Origin: a virus
Taxonomy: Duplodnaviria > Caudoviricetes
Strand: one strand, 5' to 3'
DNA: 34,705 bases
Virus record (IMG/VR): IMGVR_UViG_3300022178_003189
Location: 1-34,705 of that record
Shown piece after piece: positions 6,442 to 28,334 of the stretch. The stretch's first letter is position 1. Each line of letters starts with the position of its first letter. The translations under genes were made by a program, and so were the position numbers. The notes under the pieces are model-generated. The model had not been told where the DNA came from. It searched no databases and worked only from the letters and a program-made list of their open reading frames with translations.

Positions 6442-7464
6442 TTAGGCTGTTGTGTATGTTAAGTAATTGGTAAAAGTGTCTGCATTACTTGCCAGTCTCC
6501 AGTCATATTGATTTGTCACAACAGAACCTGGAGAAACTCTGCTTGTGAAGTTAATTGGTGCTTCTAATTTTATGCCGTAGTTCGCGGAACCTATTCTACT
6601 ATATAATATAGCTTGTAGTGTGGCACCTTGTGAGTAAGTAAGAACAGGTGCTGTAGCGTAGTAGGTCACACTCCCTGCGATATTTCTATTACTAAGGGAG
6701 AATCCAGAAGGATATTGAACATTGGTGCCGGGCGTTACGGCATCTACTTCTGTTAATGCTTTATGCACCGTCTGATAGCCTGTCCAGCTTACAGCATTCT
6801 GTAGTTCCATGTTTATAGATGCCGCATGCTCACTTCTATTATGTCCTGTAGCGCTATAGCTAGGTCCGAAGTAATGATCAGTAAGCGGAAGAAAACTTCT
6901 AGTAGCGGATCGAGCAACTACATTGGCAGTAGTAAAAGTGGGTATAGTCGAAAGCGCACTAAAGGCTGCACTTATATTACCTAGACTGTCTACTATCTTG
7001 CCTCCGTTTATGGAGGTTGTGGTGGCCAGACTGTTTATAGAAAGTTTTGTTCCTTGACCACTTAACTCTAAAGATATAGGTGCGCTATTTGATGCAGTAA
7101 AGTTACCGCTAGTAAGTACACAATCTTCTATGGAATATACTACTGCGTCAATTATAAAAAATAAGTTGAAAGTATTTAAGGTATGCTCTGTATTTAAGTC
7201 TACTAATAAATTGAATACTACATCAAAGTCAGATTCTTTAAGTAATGGTATAGTAAAACCAAAATCAGCTGGGTTTGCCTTGGAGATAGAGCCCGCCTGT
7301 ACAAGGCTAGAAAGACTATGTAGTGTCTTTTGTTTGTATGTGTGTTCGGTAAAAGTCTGAGAGAAAGATATCCCATCAGGAGTTATATCTAACTTATACG
7401 TATCAGTTCCCACAGTAGGCTGCAAGTAAACATCTGCATTCTCTAAAAACTGATAAATATCCAC
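6442..7464 (-). CDS. Baseplate tube / minor tail protein (T5 p140-like)
   Basis: 340 aa with a tube-protein-like N-terminus (ISFSQTFTE...KTLH...ANPADFGFTI) and C-terminal YDWRL. Syntenic with T5 p140. Confidence 0.8.
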   Translation of the reverse strand: MDIYQFLENADVYLQPTVGTDTYKLDITPDGISFSQTFTEHTYKQKTLHSLSSLVQAGSISKANPADFGFTIPLLKESDFDVVFNLLVDLNTEHTLNTFNLFFIIDAVVYSIEDCVLTSGNFTASNSAPISLELSGQGTKLSINSLATTTSINGGKIVDSLGNISAAFSALSTIPTFTTANVVARSATRSFLPLTDHYFGPSYSATGHNRSEHAASINMELQNAVSWTGYQTVHKALTEVDAVTPGTNVQYPSGFSLSNRNIAGSVTYYATAPVLTYSQGATLQAILYSRIGSANYGIKLEAPINFTSRVSPGSVVTNQYDWRLASNADTFTNYLTYTTA

Positions 7465-7512: not shown

Positions 7513-7541
7513 AGTATATGATAAACAACCTATCATGTCAA
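7513..7541 (-). promoter_or_regulatory. sigma70 promoter for the p140-chaperone-TMP-baseplate operon
   Basis: TTGACA-17 bp-TATACT on the minus strand with an A/T-rich UP region. Confidence 0.8.
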
Positions 7542-7557
7542 GATTTATTTTTAGGTA

Positions 7558-10500
7558 CTAGGTTATCGATGATGATCTATACGTTAATTTTACGATGTCA
7601 GTGTCGTTGGATAAAAGTGGCTGAGTATCTTCTGCAGAGAAGGATACAGAAAAGGATGCTATATCTCCGCCTGATATTTCGGGATTGACTAGAGTGACCT
7701 TAGGCATCTCGAACTTCAGTCTATTTGTACTAGGTGCGAATCCTCCCATATCAATGGTCAACGGAAGAATCTCTATGGTATCATCAAACAAAGAAGAGAT
7801 AAACTCTTTAGTGTCTAAACCATTGTCGTCCATTATGTAGCCAGAGAAACTTCCGGATACTTGTAGAGACCCCGAAGTGAAACCGATAGGGCGATCTTTC
7901 TCTTTTAGCAAAGGATAAGTTATAGGCATTAACCCGTTGTTTATGCTAACACTTGCTGCAGTAATAGGGAAGTTTACGCCAGTTCTGAATGTAGCTACAT
8001 ATCCATGATCATTTCCCGCTAATCCCGGTACTTCACCAATTCTAGATCCACCTGCAATATGTCCATTGCTTACTGCTAATGAGTGTCCAAAAGCATCGGC
8101 ATCGGCCAACTTGGAAGGGTGAAACGTACGTCCTTCAGACCAAGATTTTCCGTAATCAGTAGAGTTCCAAATGTATCCGAGGCCTGCAGAATTTATTCCG
8201 TTGGTGTCGAACGTATGACCGCCTGCCACAATAGTAACATTCTTACCGTTCTCAGACGTGTCCATATCTACAGGCAGTCCGAAATAATCATTAACCTCTA
8301 AATCAGCAAAGTCTACAGTTAGTGGAAGCAGAGTAGTTACATGATTAAATACGCCTAATGTCGAAGTAGTATTATAGACAAATACACCTCCTGTGTTACT
8401 TAAGCCATTCAGTACATCTAGTCCGTGCTCTCCAATGATCATGGTACCTTCTGCAAGCTTGACTTGGCGACCTCCTTGAGATGCTCCGGTAGGCAAGTAT
8501 TTTCTCTCTGCTAGCGACCAGTCTTTTCCATTATTTGTGGATTTGAAGGAGTAGTAAGTACCGGCACCTTCTCCAGAAGCACATACTATAGCCACTCCGT
8601 CATATATAGCTACTCCTCTACCGAAATAATCGTGTGCTGCACTGGTGCCGCCATGATCTGACCCAACTAAATGCTCTCTCTTAGTCCACAACGCTCCTTC
8701 TCTTCTATAAATAGCGGCGCTGCCTGCTTTGTCGTTGCCTGTAGAAGTATTATCTAGCCAGCAACCTACAATAAGCATGTTGTGATATAAAGACACGTCC
8801 CTGCCAAATTCTAGGTACGTGTCACCGGTAGCGGTGCCTGTAGGGTCTATAATTGCTTCTTGCTGCCACAGGTCTGCTTTTAAGGAGAAGATATTTACAC
8901 GGCCTGTAGTATCTGTACCTCTGCCTTGTTCTCCTATTGCTACCTGCCTACCGCAAGGTGAGATAGAAATTGGACTACCATCATGGGGTCCTCCAAATTG
9001 TGCACTTCCTTCAGGTGAGAAGGAAAATAAAGTCTGTTTAAATACCCAAGCGTTAGTAGCTTCATCAAATTTAAAAACTTGTACTGAGCCTGCATCGCCT
9101 GTGGCAGTATCATCTCCATATGCGGATACCATCAACCAAGGGTACTGCATGTCCATTGCCGCTCCAAAATAATCATGCGATGTAGGCGAATCAGGAAGCA
9201 TGCCACCACGATAAAGAACTTCTTTACTTTCTTGCAGACCAAATTCCATGCTACTAAGTTTATTTACTATGTAGTTATCTGTTAGCGCTAACCCCGTTTT
9301 GTTCTCACACATTGAAGGGTGGAAGGCAGCCTTAAAGAAGTGCCAAGAGTGTATATTCTCGCCTTCAAAAACTAAACTATCATTTACAGATAGACCTAAA
9401 GTAGTACAGTCTATTCGCCCTCTACCCTCCTGGTTCATAACCCAGTTCGTACTAAGACCTACAGCGTGGTTGACCCCGGCTGGAGATAACAAAATAGCAA
9501 AATACCTTTGTCCGTTGATAACTACAGAATCGTAGCTTCTAGGATTGTAGCGGGCATTTAGTGTTATGTAGTCTGCTGTAATGCTGGTCACAGTTCGGGT
9601 AGTAGTAGCTACGCTTAATCCTGTTCGGTTTTCTAGACATCTAGTTAATATATTGCCATTACTCAATGTGAAGCTATAGTTAGTACGACCCATTGCACCG
9701 CCTAAAGATAATGCTTTTTCAGTATCTAACGTATGGGATAACTCCCAAGTTGTTTCGTTTAAGTTGTATTGGTATAGCTTGCCTCTACCGTAATTCGTAT
9801 CGGTAGAGCCCCAACGTGAGTAATCGTCTGAGCCTGCGACTAATAGTGTAGTTCCATCAAAGTCTAGGTGGCGTCCGAAATAATGTTGCGTTGCTGCAAG
9901 AGGAGACGCTATAGTTTGTGTAAGGGACCAAGCTGTTCCATTATGTGTAATTACCAGCACTGCACCGCTATCAAAAAAGCCGGCATGTGAGTCTATGTAG
10001 GCCATGCCAAGCATGACGGTACCGTAAGTTCCGCCCTGGCGGTTATATTTACATATTTCGTTCTGTGATGCTATTGGTTTACTACCGGCCCCGATACTTA
10101 ATGTCTGCTCTAGTGACCAAGTTTCTCCCGCGTCTGATGTAGTGTAAAAATAAAGATTTTTTCTGCTCGGAATAACAATTCTGTCTCCATCTATCTGCAC
10201 ACTTCTTCCGTATTGCGCGTCCGTTCCATCTGTGTTATATAATATAGCCTTTTGCACCCATGCGTTGCTTACAAGCTTCCATACAACTGCTGCACCAATA
10301 TCATCGTTTAAACTATCTCCGGAATCGTGCCCAGATACACCTGTTACTAAATAGTCTCCGCTCATTGCTACTGATTGACCTAGTCTATCATCATCATAGT
10401 CCCCTGAGACTCCGTCATCGTCACCATTATCCTCGTCAAAGTCAGGACTAGAATAAGCCGCTACAAGAGTCCAGACTCCTGCAGCTCTAGTAAAGTAGTA

Positions 10501-11352
10501 GAATCCTCCGTCTCCGCCCAGGCGATTGACTGCACTTATAACAAGTTTATCCCCTTCGAGAGCCATAGAGACCCCGAAGTACTCATGGCCTGCCGTCTCA
10601 GTAGGTCGTAAAGTCTGTTGAAACTCCCACGTACACCCACCATCATTTGTTACATACACATGAGCAGCACCATCGTAGTTATTTGTATCAGGGGCGTTTT
10701 CCCATGAGTGTGCAAATATTGCAGTATTGCCTTCCATTGCAGCCATTTTTCCACTGTCAATGTTGCCGCTTCTATGTTGTGGCGAGTTATCTGCAGACTG
10801 TACTAAATCCTGTGGGTCGAACTTTTCTAGATGCGTTCCGTACCCGCTCCAGTTGATTGTTGCCATAGAATCTATAGCAACGCTGGCATCTGCACTATTT
10901 AGCTTGCAACCTCTTAGTTTATACCCAGTATTATTTTCAAATACAAAGTACAAATTAAAGGTATCTAGTAGCTCGTCTCTTGACATTGTTACTACTTGTG
11001 ATGCTGCTGATACTGTAGAAGGGGAATTAGCATATGAAGTGGCGGAACCTTTGGAAACTAGCTCCCACAGTACATCTTCCACTGCTCGCTCCTTAGATCC
11101 TTGTGTAAAAGGCCTAACGAAAGTCGAGAAAGAGAAGTTTGCAGGAGCATAGCTAGCTTTTATCTTTTTATTAAATCTATTTAAGGAGTTTCTTGTCGTA
11201 CCTCCCCCTACTAAAGTAGGAGTAGCTAACTCTACTGATTCAGATCCCTGTGAGAACGAAGGGGTGCCTGTAACAATAATCTGCCACAAGTGGCCATCCT
11301 TGCTCTCAAGGTATACCTTAGTTTCATTACCATAATAAAAGTCATTAGCCAT
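7558..11352 (-). CDS. Tail tube protein paralog with two inserted FG-GAP/Asp-box beta-propeller regions
   Basis: 1264 aa. Three segments align by eye with the adjacent major tail protein: FSFSTFVRPF/FSFSTYARPF and ATINWSGYG/ATINWSGMG, then NYIVNKLSSM/NFIQNRLSTL, then RPIGFTSGSLQVSGSF/KPIGHVTGTRSVSGSL. The segments are separated by repeats such as YFGVSMALEGDKLVIS and DYFGRGVAIYDGVAIV. Confidence 0.85.
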   Translation of the reverse strand: MANDFYYGNETKVYLESKDGHLWQIIVTGTPSFSQGSESVELATPTLVGGGTTRNSLNRFNKKIKASYAPANFSFSTFVRPFTQGSKERAVEDVLWELVSKGSATSYANSPSTVSAASQVVTMSRDELLDTFNLYFVFENNTGYKLRGCKLNSADASVAIDSMATINWSGYGTHLEKFDPQDLVQSADNSPQHRSGNIDSGKMAAMEGNTAIFAHSWENAPDTNNYDGAAHVYVTNDGGCTWEFQQTLRPTETAGHEYFGVSMALEGDKLVISAVNRLGGDGGFYYFTRAAGVWTLVAAYSSPDFDEDNGDDDGVSGDYDDDRLGQSVAMSGDYLVTGVSGHDSGDSLNDDIGAAVVWKLVSNAWVQKAILYNTDGTDAQYGRSVQIDGDRIVIPSRKNLYFYTTSDAGETWSLEQTLSIGAGSKPIASQNEICKYNRQGGTYGTVMLGMAYIDSHAGFFDSGAVLVITHNGTAWSLTQTIASPLAATQHYFGRHLDFDGTTLLVAGSDDYSRWGSTDTNYGRGKLYQYNLNETTWELSHTLDTEKALSLGGAMGRTNYSFTLSNGNILTRCLENRTGLSVATTTRTVTSITADYITLNARYNPRSYDSVVINGQRYFAILLSPAGVNHAVGLSTNWVMNQEGRGRIDCTTLGLSVNDSLVFEGENIHSWHFFKAAFHPSMCENKTGLALTDNYIVNKLSSMEFGLQESKEVLYRGGMLPDSPTSHDYFGAAMDMQYPWLMVSAYGDDTATGDAGSVQVFKFDEATNAWVFKQTLFSFSPEGSAQFGGPHDGSPISISPCGRQVAIGEQGRGTDTTGRVNIFSLKADLWQQEAIIDPTGTATGDTYLEFGRDVSLYHNMLIVGCWLDNTSTGNDKAGSAAIYRREGALWTKREHLVGSDHGGTSAAHDYFGRGVAIYDGVAIVCASGEGAGTYYSFKSTNNGKDWSLAERKYLPTGASQGGRQVKLAEGTMIIGEHGLDVLNGLSNTGGVFVYNTTSTLGVFNHVTTLLPLTVDFADLEVNDYFGLPVDMDTSENGKNVTIVAGGHTFDTNGINSAGLGYIWNSTDYGKSWSEGRTFHPSKLADADAFGHSLAVSNGHIAGGSRIGEVPGLAGNDHGYVATFRTGVNFPITAASVSINNGLMPITYPLLKEKDRPIGFTSGSLQVSGSFSGYIMDDNGLDTKEFISSLFDDTIEILPLTIDMGGFAPSTNRLKFEMPKVTLVNPEISGGDIASFSVSFSAEDTQPLLSNDTDIVKLTYRSSSIT

Positions 11353-11364
11353 ATTCTATATTCC

Positions 11365-11387
11365 AAAGAAAGGGGCCGAAGCCCCTT
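11365..11387 (-). terminator. Rho-independent terminator after the major tail gene
   Basis: Minus strand reads AAGGGGC-TTCG-GCCCCTT followed by an interrupted U tract, TCTTT. Confidence 0.8.
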
Positions 11388-11405: not shown

Positions 11406-12518
11406 TTAAGCGAAGTAAGCGATTGAACACTCGTCAGTGCCGTCAATGAACTGAGGAAGTGCATCAAAGGTAGCCTCTACAGATACAACATCGTCGAAAC
11501 TATGTTGTGGAATCTGGAAGTGTGAGTGGTTACACTGAAAACGCAATCTAGGAGTGGCTGAAGTTGTGCCACCGATATTAACAGTTAAGTCAAACTCATT
11601 GGTGATCTTACCTGTTGAAAGAGTTAAATCTTCAAACAAGTCTGCAGATCCAGCCGCAGCATCATCCAAGTAACAAGTTAAAGAACCTGAAACACTTCGA
11701 GTTCCTGTAACATGGCCAATAGGCTTATTAACAACGCCTAACTCTTCTGGAGTTAAGAAAGTAAGGTTATTAGAAACTGTAATGTTTCCGCCGGTTAAGA
11801 CCAAGTTGTAAGAACCTAAGATTGATTCACTTGCAGATGCAGTTAGAGCCAAAGTACTTAATCTGTTTTGGATAAAGTTGCTTGTGCTTGTAATCTTCTC
11901 ATCTATAGTTGTTGTTGGAGCAGACCCTTCAGTAATAGTAGTGCCCATGCCCGACCAGTTAATTGTTGCAATGCCTTCGATATCAAAATCAATACTTGCT
12001 TCGTTGAAAGCAGCACCGTTGATTTCATAAGCCATAGAGCCACTACCTGATTCATTAGGGATTACAAACGTTAATACAACTCCAGAAGCCAAGGTTGGTA
12101 CATTAGACTGAGCAAACTCAATGTTCAAGTCGGTACCATCTGAGGTAGAAACTGCAGATGAGCCACGTTTCATATCACCGGCTGTCCAAGTGTCTGCACC
12201 TAGCAACAAGCCCCAAAGAATTTCTTCTACGGCGTGGATATCGTTGTCGGTATCGCCAGCTGCTTTAGCGTAAGCTGCAGTACCTTTAAAAGGTCTAGCA
12301 TAAGTCGAAAAAGAGAACTCTACAGGGGCTAAAGAGTTATTAAACATCTTTCTGCCTCGGCGACTAACTCCAGTTGCACCAGTTGCTTCTGATAAAGTAA
12401 CTTCTGCTGTGTTTGTTGATTGAGAGAACGAATAGCCCTCTAATACTGGGATTTCCCAAACTTGGCTGCTGATCCCGGAAACGTATAGTTTTACGTCTCT
12501 ACTCATAAAAATTGACAT
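11406..12518 (-). CDS. Major tail tube protein (T5 pb6-like, lacking the C-terminal Ig-like domain)
   Basis: 370 aa with SRDVKLYVS, WEIPVLEGYSFSQ, RGRKMFNNSLAPVEFSFSTYARP and DIEGIATINWSG motifs. Strong AGGAG RBS. Confidence 0.93.
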   Translation of the reverse strand: MSIFMSRDVKLYVSGISSQVWEIPVLEGYSFSQSTNTAEVTLSEATGATGVSRRGRKMFNNSLAPVEFSFSTYARPFKGTAAYAKAAGDTDNDIHAVEEILWGLLLGADTWTAGDMKRGSSAVSTSDGTDLNIEFAQSNVPTLASGVVLTFVIPNESGSGSMAYEINGAAFNEASIDFDIEGIATINWSGMGTTITEGSAPTTTIDEKITSTSNFIQNRLSTLALTASASESILGSYNLVLTGGNITVSNNLTFLTPEELGVVNKPIGHVTGTRSVSGSLTCYLDDAAAGSADLFEDLTLSTGKITNEFDLTVNIGGTTSATPRLRFQCNHSHFQIPQHSFDDVVSVEATFDALPQFIDGTDECSIAYFA

Positions 12519-14973: not shown

Positions 14974-17055
14974 TTATACGTACGATGCACGTACTACAGG
15001 TCGGTTACCAGCAGTGCCAGCTTCAATTTGATTGAAACCAACAGACTGAGAAGCAATCAACGCTGTGCGTTGGTTAGCAACTTGGTACTCAGACTCGATG
15101 TTAACACCACCTAAACGTGGAATAACATAGTTATTTACGTTAACTGCAGCAGCAGCGGTAGTGGCTACGTCACCACTAGCATTCAAGTTACTAGCAAGAA
15201 CGTCAGAAGCAATAACAGGAGAACCGTATACAGTACCGATTAAACCAGAGATTTTAGACGCTAAAGCATCGCCAACTTCTGATACATCAGTAAATCCAGG
15301 ACCATCGATAAGCTGTAAGTAGCCATCAGTAGGTAAGATGTAAGCTACATCTTGAGGATTCATACCAAATTTACCCATGTCTTGACGCATTGCTAACAAG
15401 CCATTTGCAGTGATTTCTTGACCAGCAGCAGAAGCATCAATTGCTACTTGAGCGTCAGCGGTTGCAGTATCAACGTCACCAGTAGGTGCAACGCCATAAG
15501 CGCCAGTTACTGTATCAACACCGTCATGACCTACTAGACCATTTTCTACAGTAGTTGAAGAGTTACCAACTAAACACATTTTGTCCATCGCTTTGGCGTG
15601 TGAACGTACAAGAGCTGATTGAATCATTGGCAACATAGCGATGATAGTTTGCTCATCAGTATCGTTGCTAAGGAAAGTACCTGCTACTAAACGGAATGCA
15701 CGTAAGATAACTTGAGTAGTTGCATATGCGCCTGTTCCGCCAGCTACACTATTAATGATAGTGTTATCAGTATCTTGAATACCAGTAGCACTAAAAGTAG
15801 CGAAACCAGTATCAGGAGCGATAGGTAATACAGTTGCACCAGAAGTAACTGCAATTTCACGGAATAAACCAGCAACACGTTGCTCTAAACGAACAGCTTC
15901 TGTGAAAGAAGAGATAACGCTAGAGTCAATACCTAATGAACCTGCACCAGTATAAGTAATATCTAAACCAGCTTTTTCCATAAGATCTTTTGCGAATTGA
16001 GTTTCCATGCCTTTGCCAGTGATAGCGCCAAGGATTTTAGCTTGTAAAAAGTCGTTGCCCCATGCAGAAACATCGCCAGATTTACGACCAGAAAAGTCAC
16101 GCTTGCTTTTACGCATAGCTTCTAACTCAGCAGCTTTTTCAGCTACTTGAGCTTCATACTTTTTAGTAATCTCTTGAATTTCAGAATCTTTTGCTTTTGC
16201 AAAATCAGCTTCCATGTCAGCAACTAAGCGATCTGCACCAGTTTCAATACCAGTACGGATTGTGCTTTCTACTGCAGCTTTTTCAGCTGCTTTTTGTTCT
16301 ACTGCGTCAGCAGCAGCTTTTTGTTCCGCTACATCAGCGGCTTTTTGTTCGGCTTGTTTCATTGCAATTTTAGCAGCAGTTTCTTCAGCTACTTTCTTAG
16401 CAAATGCTTCCAAGTCGATTCCGGATTCATTAGTATCCATTTTGATCTCCTGTTTTTCCGATTTCTCGGAGCTTGTAGGTGCATCACTAACCAGGTTGGA
16501 TGATATTTCATCTTCTTTGGTCAGAGACTGACCTGTTAGATCTACACGATTGGTGAAAGTTTTCTTGAACTCATTGTACTCTTCTTCAGAGTCAAACGAT
16601 TTCGCGAGAGAAAAAGTAGCTGCTTGATTGCATGGTACCGATACAACCGATACTTCAAACAACTCAGCATCCTTAATCAATAATCCGTCAGTTTCTTTTA
16701 TATAATCAGCATCCTTGACTTTGAAACCAACGGAAAAGGCCCCAAGAACACCGTCTTTTACTAGTTCACAGACATGAGCAGGAGCAGATTTACTAATCTT
16801 TGCTTCTAACTCTAGTCCATTCTCTGTTACTCTAACTCCTGTAGCACGACCAATAGGTTTATCATAGTCATGATTAAATAGTATTACAGGGTTATTTTTA
16901 AAATTTTCTAAACCACCTTTTTCCCAAGCCTCTTTAGAGATTACATCTCCAGCTCGGTCAGAATGGTTAGTGCTAGCCATACCTCGTATCATTACGCTGC
17001 CGTCATCATTTTCCTGAGACTTGAACATAGAGGCTACATGTAAGATTTTATCCAT
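14974..17055 (-). CDS. Fused HK97-type prohead protease + scaffold (delta domain) + major capsid protein
   Basis: 693 aa. N-terminal protease motifs (DRAGDVI, NPVILFNHD...PIG, AFSVGF, LFEVSVVSVPCN), then an Ala/Glu/Lys coiled coil, then an HK97-fold capsid region (YLQLID, GLIGTVYGSPVIAS). Confidence 0.93.
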   Translation of the reverse strand: MDKILHVASMFKSQENDDGSVMIRGMASTNHSDRAGDVISKEAWEKGGLENFKNNPVILFNHDYDKPIGRATGVRVTENGLELEAKISKSAPAHVCELVKDGVLGAFSVGFKVKDADYIKETDGLLIKDAELFEVSVVSVPCNQAATFSLAKSFDSEEEYNEFKKTFTNRVDLTGQSLTKEDEISSNLVSDAPTSSEKSEKQEIKMDTNESGIDLEAFAKKVAEETAAKIAMKQAEQKAADVAEQKAAADAVEQKAAEKAAVESTIRTGIETGADRLVADMEADFAKAKDSEIQEITKKYEAQVAEKAAELEAMRKSKRDFSGRKSGDVSAWGNDFLQAKILGAITGKGMETQFAKDLMEKAGLDITYTGAGSLGIDSSVISSFTEAVRLEQRVAGLFREIAVTSGATVLPIAPDTGFATFSATGIQDTDNTIINSVAGGTGAYATTQVILRAFRLVAGTFLSNDTDEQTIIAMLPMIQSALVRSHAKAMDKMCLVGNSSTTVENGLVGHDGVDTVTGAYGVAPTGDVDTATADAQVAIDASAAGQEITANGLLAMRQDMGKFGMNPQDVAYILPTDGYLQLIDGPGFTDVSEVGDALASKISGLIGTVYGSPVIASDVLASNLNASGDVATTAAAAVNVNNYVIPRLGGVNIESEYQVANQRTALIASQSVGFNQIEAGTAGNRPVVRASYV

Positions 17056-24029: not shown

Positions 24030-27000
24030 CTATCCTGTAGTGACAACTATACTGCCACGATAGACACCAGAGCTACTGCCCGTCTTTGTATAGTAATAAG
24101 TACCTGGAGTATGCGGAACCCAAGTTACTTGACTATTTGCTGTACCTACATTATTTATAGTCTCTTCATTTAGTACATTATTTGTTGCCGAGGAACTATA
24201 TGCGGTCTTTAGTGACATAGATGCCTCACTAAATGTGATTTTTAGTCTATCGCCTGTGCGCATGGTTAATGTCTTGTTCGGTACATTCGAGAATGAGCCA
24301 TTCCTGTCGGTGCCAGACAGTTTAATAGTACCACTAAAAGTAGTAGTTACTGTATATGTAGGTCCGGTGTAAGGAACTGTGTCTATAGATATTACTGTGT
24401 CGGTAATATTATTGATTGTCTCATTATTCCAGGGCATGATACCATGCTGTCCACTACTCTGCCCTCCATCTACAGCTCCGAAAAGGTAGCTGCTCACTCT
24501 ACGCACTTGGTAATAAGCACCCCTTTCTATCGTAATATACTTCGCGGCAATTGAAGAGGTATTGTTATCTGTCCGTGCTATACCTCCTTTATATAGGGCC
24601 CAGTACTTTGTAGTATGGTAGTACGTTCTTTCACTGAGTCCAAGAGTATCACTTTCTGTTTCTGTTTCGGTTCTGATGCACTCTCTATGCGACTGTACCT
24701 TTGTATTATAAAAGAACGCTGGCGCCGCAGAAGTAGTAAGCGATATCGTAGAGCTTGCTGTTGGAGTAAATTGGCTACTATGGCTCTGGAAGTTACCTCC
24801 CCAACTATTGGCCTTGAGACTTCCACAAGAGGGCGTAACCGGATTTGAAGGGTGAGATATATTTGCAGTGTCTGTTATGAGCAGAGGTCTAGATCTGGAG
24901 TCGAACACTGTTACTCCTGCATTTGATAGTATTTGCATGCCATGGTCGCCATGAGGCGTGGGGGCAGAGGGCGGCTCAGAGAATATGTAAAGCTCTGGAG
25001 CGCCCCCTACGTTGTAGGCGTTTACATCGAAATTTCCGTTATCAGCTACAGTGTAAGGGCCTGTACGTTTAACTGGTACAAACGAAAAGTGTTCTGTATA
25101 TGTAGTATTATCAAAGTCAAAAGTGTAAGTATAGTTTCCTACAGTAACTCCCTGTGCTATCCCTCCTACAGTATTTGAGGACGTTATTGTGCTGCCGTTC
25201 CAGATAAGCTTCTCTTTCGTGCTGCCAGAGCTAGTCAATCTCCCATAGTTGGCTCGTAATAGGCCCCTAGCTGCGGAGGTTAAAGATACTTGATGGGCTT
25301 TTGTATGTGTAGTGCCTCCTCCAGTGCTCACATAAGAATAATTCCATTTGCTACTATTACTACTGGCATAGCTATACTTCGTGCTTAAAGGGTTTTGATC
25401 GCTGTAACGGTATGTAGGGAAATAGCTAAGTAAGCCTACGTTCTCGTGGCAATTCATTGCTTCGAATGTAGTACCAGTAGAATGCGTAGTTCTGTAAGCC
25501 CTATTAGGTCGCGCCACTGCCGAAGTCGAGCCTATCGTTATGTTGGCGAGGTAGTAAGGCTGTATATTTACACCATGAATATTATCTACAACACCTCTTA
25601 TGCAAGCTACGCCGGGAGTAAAGCTTCTTGTTTGCGTCTGAACTGTATCGGGAGTAGTTACAAAACCAGCGTGTCTCCACAGAGATGGATCGACTGCGGT
25701 GTGGTAAGATTTATTTCCATGGTGCTTTATTAAACGTACAGTGCTACCTGGAGTCCTAATAAGACTCATTTGAAAGGGGTGAGCCGGTGGTACATTAGTC
25801 CCAGATTGCTCAACTTTGACGTAGAAAGTACGGCCTTTTGCATGTAGTATATTGTCAATATCAGTGTTATGTACTGCGGAGAGTGTTCGGTCCCAAGGAT
25901 CGAGAGTCATGTCATAATCACTACTGGTTGTACTGACAGTCTTAAAAGTAGTAGTTCCCTTGTATAATGTATATGTTCTAGTACCTGTTATATTTTCTGT
26001 TTTAATATTTACTGTAATTCCTTGAGGAGGTGACTTCGCCTCTACTTTGGGATATGTCGCAGTCTGTAGGAGCTGGCTAAAACTAATGTTAGTGCGAACT
26101 TGCAAGTGAGGTTGTGAAGAAGTTGGTTTATAGTTCCACACTTGTTGGCTTACCCATATTTCGGAAAGCGTACCATCTAGTGCTCTAACATTTACGCGGT
26201 ATCTGACATGAACACTGCCCCCAGATGATTGAGTCGCATACACACTGGATGAATAATTTGAATGATCAGCCATTAAAGCTAGCTCTGTACTTTGATTCGC
26301 TGGTACTGACCACGTACCTGGAGTAAAAGGTGCAGGACTCATGCCGTTGGTGGCACTGTTGGTGGAAAGTAGGTTTTCATAAATGTTTACGAACTTTAAA
26401 GAGTATTCTCCTGGAGACAGAGAGGCTGCTGAAGCTCCATGATTGTAGGTAAGGAAGCCGGTGCCGTTATACACGCGTACGAGTCCTCCACTGTCTACAA
26501 AAGAAGTACTATAAGGTATGCGTAGCGTGTGTCCTCCATACAAAACGCCGAACGACGTTGGATTAGTCTGCGAAGGATTAAATGTTACTGATTCGTTAAA
26601 CGAAATACTGTCTGAAGTGAAGTTTGTTACCTGTAGCTTTGCTAACTGAGACGTACCAAGGTTGGTCACTGCATTATTTTCATCTCCCAAAGGTCGAGTA
26701 GTATCAGCAGTATCACTACGTAGTACGTGGTAGCTTTCATCTCCTTTCAACAGGACATCTATGTCCATGTCATTATCTAGATAATGTGTGGCACCTGATA
26801 GGCCAGCACGAAGTGTAAACCCATGTTGAGTAGTAGGTAATCCGAGTAAGGTGTTTCCATTGTTCGAATATGCCCAAGGGTTAATCCCTAAACTAGGTTT
26901 ATGATAAGTGGTATCCCAATATTCTGTATAGTCAGCAGGGTTGTCTGCACTAGTTTGGCCCAGATCAGGGTCTAGGTGTGCAGGGAAGTTGGTAACTTGT

Positions 27001-28334
27001 GACTGGACTTGGTATAAGCGTAATTCATGTCTAAGAGCTTCGCTGTTGTCTAGAGGGATTGCGAAAAAGTCCATATTGCTTGGAGTATAGTTTGACGTTA
27101 AAGTAAATTGATAAAGCGGGCTCCCCGTTGCTGTTGCACTTACACCCGGCCAGCCTCGTACGTAGAAGTTGAAGTGTTCGAACTTGCTGCCTCCTATAGT
27201 AATATCTGCGGGTGCCCGGTTTCTATAGTACCAGGTAATAGCGTCAAAATCCATACAAGGGTGATTACCAGATACCTCTAAGTAGTACCCTACGGTAGCA
27301 TTATACCCCAAGCCTGTAATTTGCTTGAAGCCTGACCAGGTTACGTAGGTCTCGCCAGAACCAAAAGGATCGCTAATGCTTTTAGGCCAGTTTGCGTACT
27401 GACCAACCTTAATTTTTTCATAAGACCACTGACTAATGTACAGTCTAGTCTTACTATTAACATAATCGGAGGCATTGGAATCCGTTTTGATAAGTGGGTA
27501 AGTATAAGACATATCTGCACGCTTTTTCTCGTGAATTCTATGTATATAACTACTAAGCCTAGTAGAGGCATCGGTAGGTGTTAGTACGTAGGGTGCCGAG
27601 CCAGTATTAGTATCTGGAGTCCCTTCAATATCCCCACCATTATACTGAAAAACCGAAAGAACGTTGCGTCCGCCAGAGGAATAGCCTTTCCAAGAAAGAT
27701 ACTGACCAGTTCTTAGTATGTTTGAAAATTCAACTCTACGGCCTTGAGGTATGTGCTCTTGCTGATAGGCTCGAGTAACGCTACTAGTAGAAGTGTTATA
27801 GGAAGAGTAGTCGCTGCACAGAACCATTGCACCTCTACTAAGGCCTCGTCCAGTTGTGAGTCCCTCACCGTAGTTTTCAGGTATAATCTGTACCTGTCCA
27901 ATTGTTCCAGAGGCACTAGTGCTATCCGGCCATATAGGAGTTTCCCACTCTTCAGGCAGAAAGAACTGCTCTAGGGTCATATCGAACCCTTGTGCAGGGG
28001 TAGTAACAATTAGAGGGGGCACATAGTTGGCCTGGTCTTCCGGTCGTGTATTCGATATTAATTCTATGTTCCACTCGTTATCATTGCCTGTAGGAAACAC
28101 CTGCGTTACGGCATAAGATTTGCCCGAGAAGGGTGTGGTAAAGAAAGGTATAGGGAGTGAACTACAGTTACTTACCGTATAGTTAAATAAGGTAAAGCCT
28201 CCAAAGCCTGATTTAGGTGAAGTACTTCTACTATAGTCGGGGCTGAGGATTCTTTTTACAAAAGTTAAGTTTGTAGTTTGATCAGTAATTAAGTACTCAT
28301 CATCGTCGTTTTTTGAAACAAACCCATATGCCAT
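24030..28334 (-). CDS. Large tail-tip / receptor-binding protein (T5 pb5 locus)
   Basis: 1434 aa, Ser/Thr/Gly/Tyr-rich beta protein. N-terminal MAYGFVSKND..LI.D and internal HGMQILSNAGVTVFDS..PL motifs are typical of siphophage tail-tip proteins. Last late gene before the putative terminal repeat. Confidence 0.7.
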   Translation of the reverse strand: MAYGFVSKNDDDEYLITDQTTNLTFVKRILSPDYSRSTSPKSGFGGFTLFNYTVSNCSSLPIPFFTTPFSGKSYAVTQVFPTGNDNEWNIELISNTRPEDQANYVPPLIVTTPAQGFDMTLEQFFLPEEWETPIWPDSTSASGTIGQVQIIPENYGEGLTTGRGLSRGAMVLCSDYSSYNTSTSSVTRAYQQEHIPQGRRVEFSNILRTGQYLSWKGYSSGGRNVLSVFQYNGGDIEGTPDTNTGSAPYVLTPTDASTRLSSYIHRIHEKKRADMSYTYPLIKTDSNASDYVNSKTRLYISQWSYEKIKVGQYANWPKSISDPFGSGETYVTWSGFKQITGLGYNATVGYYLEVSGNHPCMDFDAITWYYRNRAPADITIGGSKFEHFNFYVRGWPGVSATATGSPLYQFTLTSNYTPSNMDFFAIPLDNSEALRHELRLYQVQSQVTNFPAHLDPDLGQTSADNPADYTEYWDTTYHKPSLGINPWAYSNNGNTLLGLPTTQHGFTLRAGLSGATHYLDNDMDIDVLLKGDESYHVLRSDTADTTRPLGDENNAVTNLGTSQLAKLQVTNFTSDSISFNESVTFNPSQTNPTSFGVLYGGHTLRIPYSTSFVDSGGLVRVYNGTGFLTYNHGASAASLSPGEYSLKFVNIYENLLSTNSATNGMSPAPFTPGTWSVPANQSTELALMADHSNYSSSVYATQSSGGSVHVRYRVNVRALDGTLSEIWVSQQVWNYKPTSSQPHLQVRTNISFSQLLQTATYPKVEAKSPPQGITVNIKTENITGTRTYTLYKGTTTFKTVSTTSSDYDMTLDPWDRTLSAVHNTDIDNILHAKGRTFYVKVEQSGTNVPPAHPFQMSLIRTPGSTVRLIKHHGNKSYHTAVDPSLWRHAGFVTTPDTVQTQTRSFTPGVACIRGVVDNIHGVNIQPYYLANITIGSTSAVARPNRAYRTTHSTGTTFEAMNCHENVGLLSYFPTYRYSDQNPLSTKYSYASSNSSKWNYSYVSTGGGTTHTKAHQVSLTSAARGLLRANYGRLTSSGSTKEKLIWNGSTITSSNTVGGIAQGVTVGNYTYTFDFDNTTYTEHFSFVPVKRTGPYTVADNGNFDVNAYNVGGAPELYIFSEPPSAPTPHGDHGMQILSNAGVTVFDSRSRPLLITDTANISHPSNPVTPSCGSLKANSWGGNFQSHSSQFTPTASSTISLTTSAAPAFFYNTKVQSHRECIRTETETESDTLGLSERTYYHTTKYWALYKGGIARTDNNTSSIAAKYITIERGAYYQVRRVSSYLFGAVDGGQSSGQHGIMPWNNETINNITDTVISIDTVPYTGPTYTVTTTFSGTIKLSGTDRNGSFSNVPNKTLTMRTGDRLKITFSEASMSLKTAYSSSATNNVLNEETINNVGTANSQVTWVPHTPGTYYYTKTGSSSGVYRGSIVVTTG

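Follow-up and report, generated by a model that had tools for sequence, protein, structure and literature searches.

Siphophage tails of the T5 type have a shaft of roughly 40 rings built by a pb6-type major tail protein (MTP). A duplicated tube fold and the gene order tail terminator, MTP, p140, chaperones, tape measure and Dit, as described for T5 and DT57C (PMC5717097, PMC10038345, PMC10713586), are shared by the DNA studied here, a 34,705-nucleotide stretch from a virus (Duplodnaviria; Caudoviricetes; IMG/VR record IMGVR_UViG_3300022178_003189, positions 1 to 34,705), which we call the window. T5 has two tube-fold genes and uses a diverged paralog as a special ring, p140 being undecorated; in the window a third tube gene stands between the two, an open reading frame (ORF) of 1264 residues at 7558..11352 on the minus strand with 900 residues of inserts. 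This ORF and its clade are referred to as the paralog. A p132-like gene in a close relative is a further likeness to T5.

Parallels are also found in other tails. The FN3-extended form of SPP1 gp17.1 is likewise a minor, decorated tube subunit and a proposed aid to adsorption, which arises by frameshift from one gene, has an identical core and carries its decoration at the C-terminus (PMC8718954), whereas the paralog is a separate, old ORF behind a hairpin, with a 27% identical core and internal inserts. Domain 2 of the YSD1/Chi MTP is likewise inserted in the tube fold and lies on the outside, but it is a small beta-sandwich of the major subunit, placed at another site, and stabilises the ring (PMC8718954). 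The myophage proteins gp48/gp54 of T4 and gp78/gp79 of P7-1 are also diverged tube paralogs forming single rings at the tip end; their tails are contractile, and the available sections do not describe large variable cargo for them. A literature search, which left most subscription papers outside, found neither a third tube paralog in T5-like phages nor an FG-GAP propeller in a tube protein.

A tube protein in three collinear pieces

An earlier note, made from the sequence of the window, had described the ORF as a tube paralog of the MTP split into three collinear pieces, and this is borne out by alignments to MTP and pb6 and by relatives with fewer inserts. Residues 1–181 (10810..11352, minus strand) correspond to tube subdomain 1 and residues 1124–1264 (7558..7983, minus strand) to the remainder of subdomain 2, both matching T5 pb6 and the MTP of the window, a separate and better-conserved gene upstream (11406..12518, minus strand; 370 residues, pb6-like, without an Ig domain). 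Identity to this MTP is 29% over residues 5–177 (E 2e-16) and 28% over residues 1127–1258 (E 8e-11), and T5 pb6 aligns over two separate collinear segments (E 4.4e-14 for the whole sequence). The middle piece, residues 676–706 (9235..9327, minus strand), comprises the last part of the linker and the opening strand of subdomain 2. It is weak by pairwise BLAST against the MTP (E 0.15), and in a small HMM it reached 3.0 bits, below the best of 1000 shuffles (3.9). An ungapped MTP profile set it at residues 686–705 (nt 9297–9238) with a score of 31.4, the runner-up scoring 14.0; none of 300 shuffles of the window protein equalled that score, and for five homologs the same profile gave 0, 1, 1, 0 and 0 of 300. 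Independent confirmation comes from loci L007, L056, L097 and L098, where the middle segment directly follows the N-terminal half, and a MAFFT alignment puts the corresponding strand from two bare relatives at residues 692–706.

Judged by these alignments, the paralog has two tandem tube subdomains collinear with pb6. The Pfam p140 profile PF23779 gave no match to it at E 0.1, while the next gene has one: the p140-like tip tube protein (6442..7464, minus strand; 340 residues) matches at E 1.9e-4, under the curated cut-off, which its homologs pass. The existence of full-length homologs (six, at 48–89% identity) and the collinear order of the pieces led us to reject frameshift or assembly fusion as the origin of the ORF; that the junctions in the window are continuous rests on several contigs.

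For the bare clade member P0023 a confident fold was predicted (pLDDT 87.3, pTM 0.86), and its best match is pb6 (Foldseek E 1.2e-22, TM 0.77; Z 26.3, rmsd 3.5, 294 residues aligned). Comparison with the 298-residue T5 tip chain, which from its length we take to be p140, gave TM 0.62 and Z 22.5. Single-domain tubes align to residues 4–170 or 187–341 of P0023, alignments that place the first insertion site (site 1) in the inter-subdomain linker and the second (site 2) in the loop that follows strand 1 of subdomain 2.

Two predicted beta-propellers

The inserts, put earlier at roughly 400–500 residues each, measure 494 and 417. Insert 1 (residues 182–675; 9328..10809, minus strand) lies in the linker between the tube subdomains and is predicted to be a seven-bladed FG-GAP/Asp-box propeller; insert 2 (residues 707–1123; 7984..9234, minus strand) occupies the first beta-hairpin loop of subdomain 2 and is also predicted to form seven blades. 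Both were well predicted in a model of residues 65–1264, which as a whole had a mean pLDDT of 69.5 and a pTM of 0.49. Pfam FG-GAP_2 (PF14312) matches the paralog at E 4e-35 (120 bits), with five stretches passing singly, and eight FG-type motifs were found by regular expression, the GAP half of the FG-GAP/Cage repeats being degenerate. The earlier count of about ten FG-GAP-like repeats was right as to their presence and is an undercount of blades, since the strand list of the model reads as 7+7. The four Asp-box-like motifs were recovered at residues 235, 405, 938 and 1064 (four occur in 0/2000 shuffles), as was an acidic loop at residues 304–322 (10387..10443, minus strand), which precedes an FG-type motif off the integrin Ca2+ position and is possibly a metal or ligand loop.

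The likeness to integrins holds at the level of predicted structure. For propeller 2, the one searched, the best match is an integrin alpha propeller (Z 33.5, rmsd 3.3, 367 residues aligned), with integrins spanning Z 29–34; the bacterial enzyme CylK ties with them at Z 32.4, and WD40 proteins lie lower, at 28.9 or less. The search for stand-alone sources of propeller 2 gave one weak match. Integrin-type propellers have seven four-stranded blades with FG-GAP/Cage repeats and a DxDxDG-like Ca2+ motif in the 1,2-loop (PMC3192720). With integrin alpha and FG-GAP_2 the inserts have in common the predicted seven blades, the FG-type motifs and the top structural matches, but they are without the DxDxDG loop between strands 1 and 2, possess four Asp-boxes and come with no other integrin parts. 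Seven proteins scanned for the integrin motif held 0 strict copies; a loose Ca2+-like motif at residue 309 stands before an FG motif and is absent from P0006. Asp-boxes are structural and not ligand-binding (PMC2716378), so that they give no sign of glycan binding; with the integrin Ca2+ motif missing as well, no ligand can be read from either motif. The model also places a small beta domain of ~90 residues (576–665; 9358..9627, minus strand) within the last blade of propeller 1, for which PHROG and Atlas gave no match. On our reading of the strand list, the strand that closes each propeller appears to come from the beginning of its insert, so that both insert ends would lie together.

A clade of tube paralogs with variable cargo

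A survey of relatives for variable inserts at the same two loops, suggested in the earlier note, found bare members and members with different inserts. The paralog was present in 9/80 loci fetched with the MTP, and 19 more loci were fetched with a paralog alignment. When 1.84 billion representatives were searched with a profile, 498 matched; among the 150 listed, the best 13 exceed 200 bits and the next has 172. In a midpoint-rooted tree of the tube portions alone (234 distinct rows, p140 left out), 27 paralog rows and the unplaced row P0037 fall on one side (FastTree support 1.0), and a 54-row IQ-TREE subset (16 + 12 chosen, 26 random) gave the same split with an SH-aLRT of 100. The paralogs, 339–2411 residues in length, are a clade of their own, separate from MTPs and from p140.

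Bare members have 339, 341, 346, 346 and 358 residues. Site 2 alone is occupied by an FG-GAP propeller in proteins of 941–942 residues and by unrelated cargo in those of 1302, 1329 and 1448; N-terminal cargo is found at 900 residues and, together with a propeller, at 1330. Both sites are loaded in members of 1253–1265, 1959 and 2411 residues, the last two with further domains set inside their propellers. In two cases a bare and a loaded protein are sisters (P0025 with L097, P0031 with P0030), which indicates that cargo comes and goes. The single insert of L007 is nearer to insert 1 (E 1e-15) than to insert 2 (E 1e-5), yet it is found at site 2. Both subdomains and their core residues are kept across the clade, and tube pN/pS values of 0.09–0.39 indicate purifying selection. 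Among 50,697 records of cultured phages, an MTP match was obtained in 907, at a single place in each, and no record covers 80% of the paralog; in two cultured T5-like loci that were opened the MTP, short and Ig-less, runs straight into the tip tube gene with no paralog. Gene context for P0027, P0029 and P0030 was sought in viral contigs and not found. Within the MTP clade, the 1162-residue protein P0103 has an insert of ~800 residues at site 2, apparently of repeated binding modules.

Cassettes appear to move between tube frames. Frames A (P0001, P0006) and B (P0002, P0007) share 61–67% identity with each other and 93–100% within, and cassettes X (P0001, P0002) and Y (P0006, P0007) about 45% between and 94–99% within; all four combinations of frame and cassette exist, so the central cassette has been exchanged by recombination. 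At the DNA level the cassette is 93–100% identical while the flanks drop to 60–78%, and locus L091 has an A-type left arm and a B-type right arm. One of the combinations is seen again in an independent assembly, where a contig matches positions 7964–10829 with 51 differences and diverges on both flanks; this speaks against a chimera produced by a single assembler. Propeller 1 has pN/pS values of 0.84–1.29 in comparisons with the window and 0.29 between L050 and L084. Six variants hold 52 amino-acid-changing and 25 silent-only codons; 19/52 changing codons lie in strands, against 45% expected, and loops are not clearly enriched. Diversifying selection on propeller 1 is at most suggested by these counts.

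Proposed place in the tail

Divergence, neighbourhood and expression signals bear on where such a protein would sit. The gene after the paralog is p140 in 15/15 locus records in which it is visible (about nine distinct variants; the L098 contig ends before it), and in L107 the paralog still adjoins p140, though three genes part it from the MTP. These three (L107:4274-7973; 147, 368 and 714 residues) are of unknown type, and the 714-residue protein begins like paralog N-terminal cargo. In 19/66 loci the MTP is followed directly by a chaperone gene, with neither paralog nor p140 in that slot. The paralog tube is 22–27% identical to its own MTP in five loci, whereas a duplicate of another type, which lies upstream of the MTP (L022, L031), is 61–62% identical to it. 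The long ring-to-ring hairpins are present in the paralogs, but agreement with the MTP consensus is 0.30 there and 0.56 in the rest of the tube (P 0.012); for the other duplicates the values are 0.94 and 0.93. Such hairpins of the last tube ring are what touches the underlying tip ring in DT57C (PMC10713586), and single rings of diverged paralogs are known from T5 p140 (9% to pb6) and T4 gp54 (PMC10038345), with P7-1 gp78/gp79 as a further precedent (PMC13338283).

Signals around the gene point to a small amount of product. A terminator-like GC hairpin with a T-rich tail (11365..11387, minus strand) lies 12 nt before the paralog start codon. When the first 70 nt after 66 distinct MTPs were scanned, a hairpin stood directly before the paralog in 13/13 paralog loci; elsewhere it followed the MTP in 0/25 loci with p140 next, 2/19 with a chaperone next and 5/9 with a neck gene next. 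The MTP has a strong ribosome-binding site (AGGAG) and the paralog a weak one (GGA alone). Because of the hairpin and this weak site the paralog is probably minor in amount, as the earlier note supposed, and it may be expressed at a low level by read-through of the MTP terminator. A sigma-70-type promoter-like site (11 of 12) lies between paralog and p140 (7513..7541, minus strand), with similar boxes in five related loci. In runs X17 and X18 the MTP is covered by RNA-library contigs without a gap and the paralog patchily, but contigs cannot rank genes and were not used.

Taken together, the p140 slot, the divergence from the MTP, the lost hairpin consensus and the terminator-like hairpin favour one dedicated, low-copy trimeric ring between the last MTP ring and the p140 ring, a placement to which we give about an even chance. 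With three paralogs in the ring, six propellers would be displayed close above the tip of the tail and serve as accessory adhesins open to exchange; low read-through past the MTP terminator would keep the protein scarce; and each propeller, closing with its ends side by side, would hang off its loop and leave the tube unbroken.

The co-polymerisation along the tail that was first proposed fares less well. A minor subunit that joins the MTP at intervals along the shaft, as the frameshift-extended form does with SPP1 gp17.1, would agree with the bare member being structurally nearer to pb6 than to the T5 tip chain, and its fixed minor ratio would come from terminator read-through; mixed tubes exist, at 3:1 in SPP1 (PMC8718954). 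The two SPP1 forms, however, have one core in common, against 27% identity here, and the paralog of L107 stays beside p140 and not beside the MTP. With only 22–27% identity and the long-hairpin consensus lost, free co-polymerisation is the less likely arrangement, and we regard it as unlikely.

A dedicated ring or block could also sit elsewhere, either as several stacked rings at the tip end or as a top ring under the tail terminator. Any dedicated position fits the divergence from the MTP and the scarcity, but the constant adjacency to p140 points to the tip, and the slot between terminator and MTP is held by the other duplicate class in L022, L025 and L031, which makes these placements improbable. 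That class (L022:7013-8893, L031:6857-8890, L025:3-890) represents another and younger type of MTP duplication. Its inserts lie in the first loop and within subdomain 1, a promoter-like site precedes the plain MTP, and it is the better candidate for true co-polymerisation.

Several observations weigh against the single ring above p140. The 13 hairpin loci are related and not independent, the hairpin region of the window folds no better than shuffles (z -0.5; six loci reach values to -5.0), and the list of a terminator scanner run on the window lacks the paralog hairpin. The hairpin-consensus statistic uses non-independent columns, and the first hairpin is poorly registered. Superposition on pb6, as the earlier note had suggested, succeeded for the bare clade member, but the tube pieces of the window's own protein are low-confidence in the 1200-residue model (block pLDDT about 30–75), and a fold search with that model has no tube chain among the matches listed, which are filled by propellers. 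A complex prediction in which each of the three tube pieces was a chain of its own (score 0.13, mark 0.32) is evidence neither way. The T5 p132 collar touches the last tube ring, and a p132-like collar, encoded in relative L102 downstream of a 2587-residue hub and central-fibre fusion (L102:10741-18504), could crowd an extra ring above p140. The pb6 inter-subdomain linker, equivalent to site 1, joins ring-to-ring contacts (PMC10038345). Since bare members are maintained with no cargo, such a ring must have some role besides display. Gene order is no more than a guide to position in the virion, of which the paralog is, from the genes, a candidate component.

The weak expression signals and the bare members would also suit a protein that is no regular part of the virion, a free or occasional tube-like protein such as an assembly regulator, a decoy for host sensors that recognise tube proteins or a constituent of a minority of particles, or else propellers that serve as enzymes or scaffolds; the tie of CylK with integrins and the occurrence of FG-GAP propellers as stand-alone genes outside tail modules (phage nt-1) lean the same way. 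Against this stand the clade-wide retention of both subdomains and their core residues under the low tube pN/pS, and the exchange of cargo with unrelated folds at shared loops, which is what surface display would lead one to expect. We see a slim chance for this alternative.

Orientation and possible roles of the inserts

In an assembled tube the inserts would probably point outward, given that the 40-angstrom lumen holds the tape measure (PMC5717097), that the equivalent loop contacts outer parts in lambda and T6SS (PMC8718954), and that ordinary MTPs carry inserts at both sites (L057, L075–L079; P0103). Their location and the exchange of cassettes suggest adhesion, the role proposed for tube decorations and called unverified by a review (PMC8718954); the inserts may bind cell-surface or capsule ligands reversibly and be swapped as ligands change. 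Binding to eukaryotic surfaces or particles, also raised earlier, is at most hinted at by the fold, and the integrin Ca2+ loops are absent. The suggestion that the paralog replaces the Ig domain missing from the MTP did not survive: in 6/12 complete paralog loci the MTP exceeds 400 residues and is decorated, and the two cultured T5-like phages combine short, Ig-less MTPs with the lack of a paralog.

More broadly, the finding is real and reaches further than the single gene first read, as a variant of the T5 tail plan. It is possible, though doubtful, that an aquatic branch of T5-like phages has a dedicated cargo ring made of a third tube protein in terminator-set low copy, a plug-in platform whose payloads, 550–2000 residues long and including integrin-like propellers, nested binding domains and unrelated folds, are exchanged through recombination, and which would provide a second exchangeable adhesion system apart from the fibres, perhaps directed at gels, particles, algae or other surfaces that are not hosts. 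If this is so, a siphophage tail is able to acquire an additional tube ring for display, and the tube fold tolerates two inserts of 400–500 residues at defined loops, which would mark these two loops for display on phage tubes. It would also add a determinant of host range or habitat that fibre-centred annotation has missed, and the members with 0, 1 or 2 inserts or N-terminal cargo would form a natural series for the function of tail decoration.

Neighbouring genes and related loci

The window is one contig holding a T5-like structural module on the minus strand, in the order terminase, portal, protease-capsid, adaptor, neck, tail terminator, MTP, paralog, p140-like gene, chaperones, tape measure, Dit and hub start. 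Sequencing runs with its DNA are labelled freshwater, aquatic or marine metagenome, and no relative of the phage was found in a species-genome collection.

Other loci vary the tube genes in further ways. Homologs of p140 with 495–617 residues have a large insert towards the N-terminus (L014:10239-11813, L022:10218-11915, L025:2239-4092, L031:10338-12017, L032:8397-9884); that of L022 gives a Laminin_G_3 match, whereas freedom from decoration is described as a requirement for T5 p140. In L005, L012, L016 and similar loci a pb6-like MTP is followed directly by a chaperone gene, without p140. The L012 genes past the tape measure are presumably lambda-like in size and order, and a pb6-type tube may here be joined to a lambda-type tip. 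The neck gene lies downstream of the MTP in L058–L074, not upstream of the terminator gene.

Within the window, a 1434-residue ORF (24030-28334, minus strand) has no Pfam, PHROG or Atlas match. Prohead protease and major capsid protein are fused in a single product of 693 residues (14974-17055, minus strand), whereas cultured T5-like phages encode them as separate genes.

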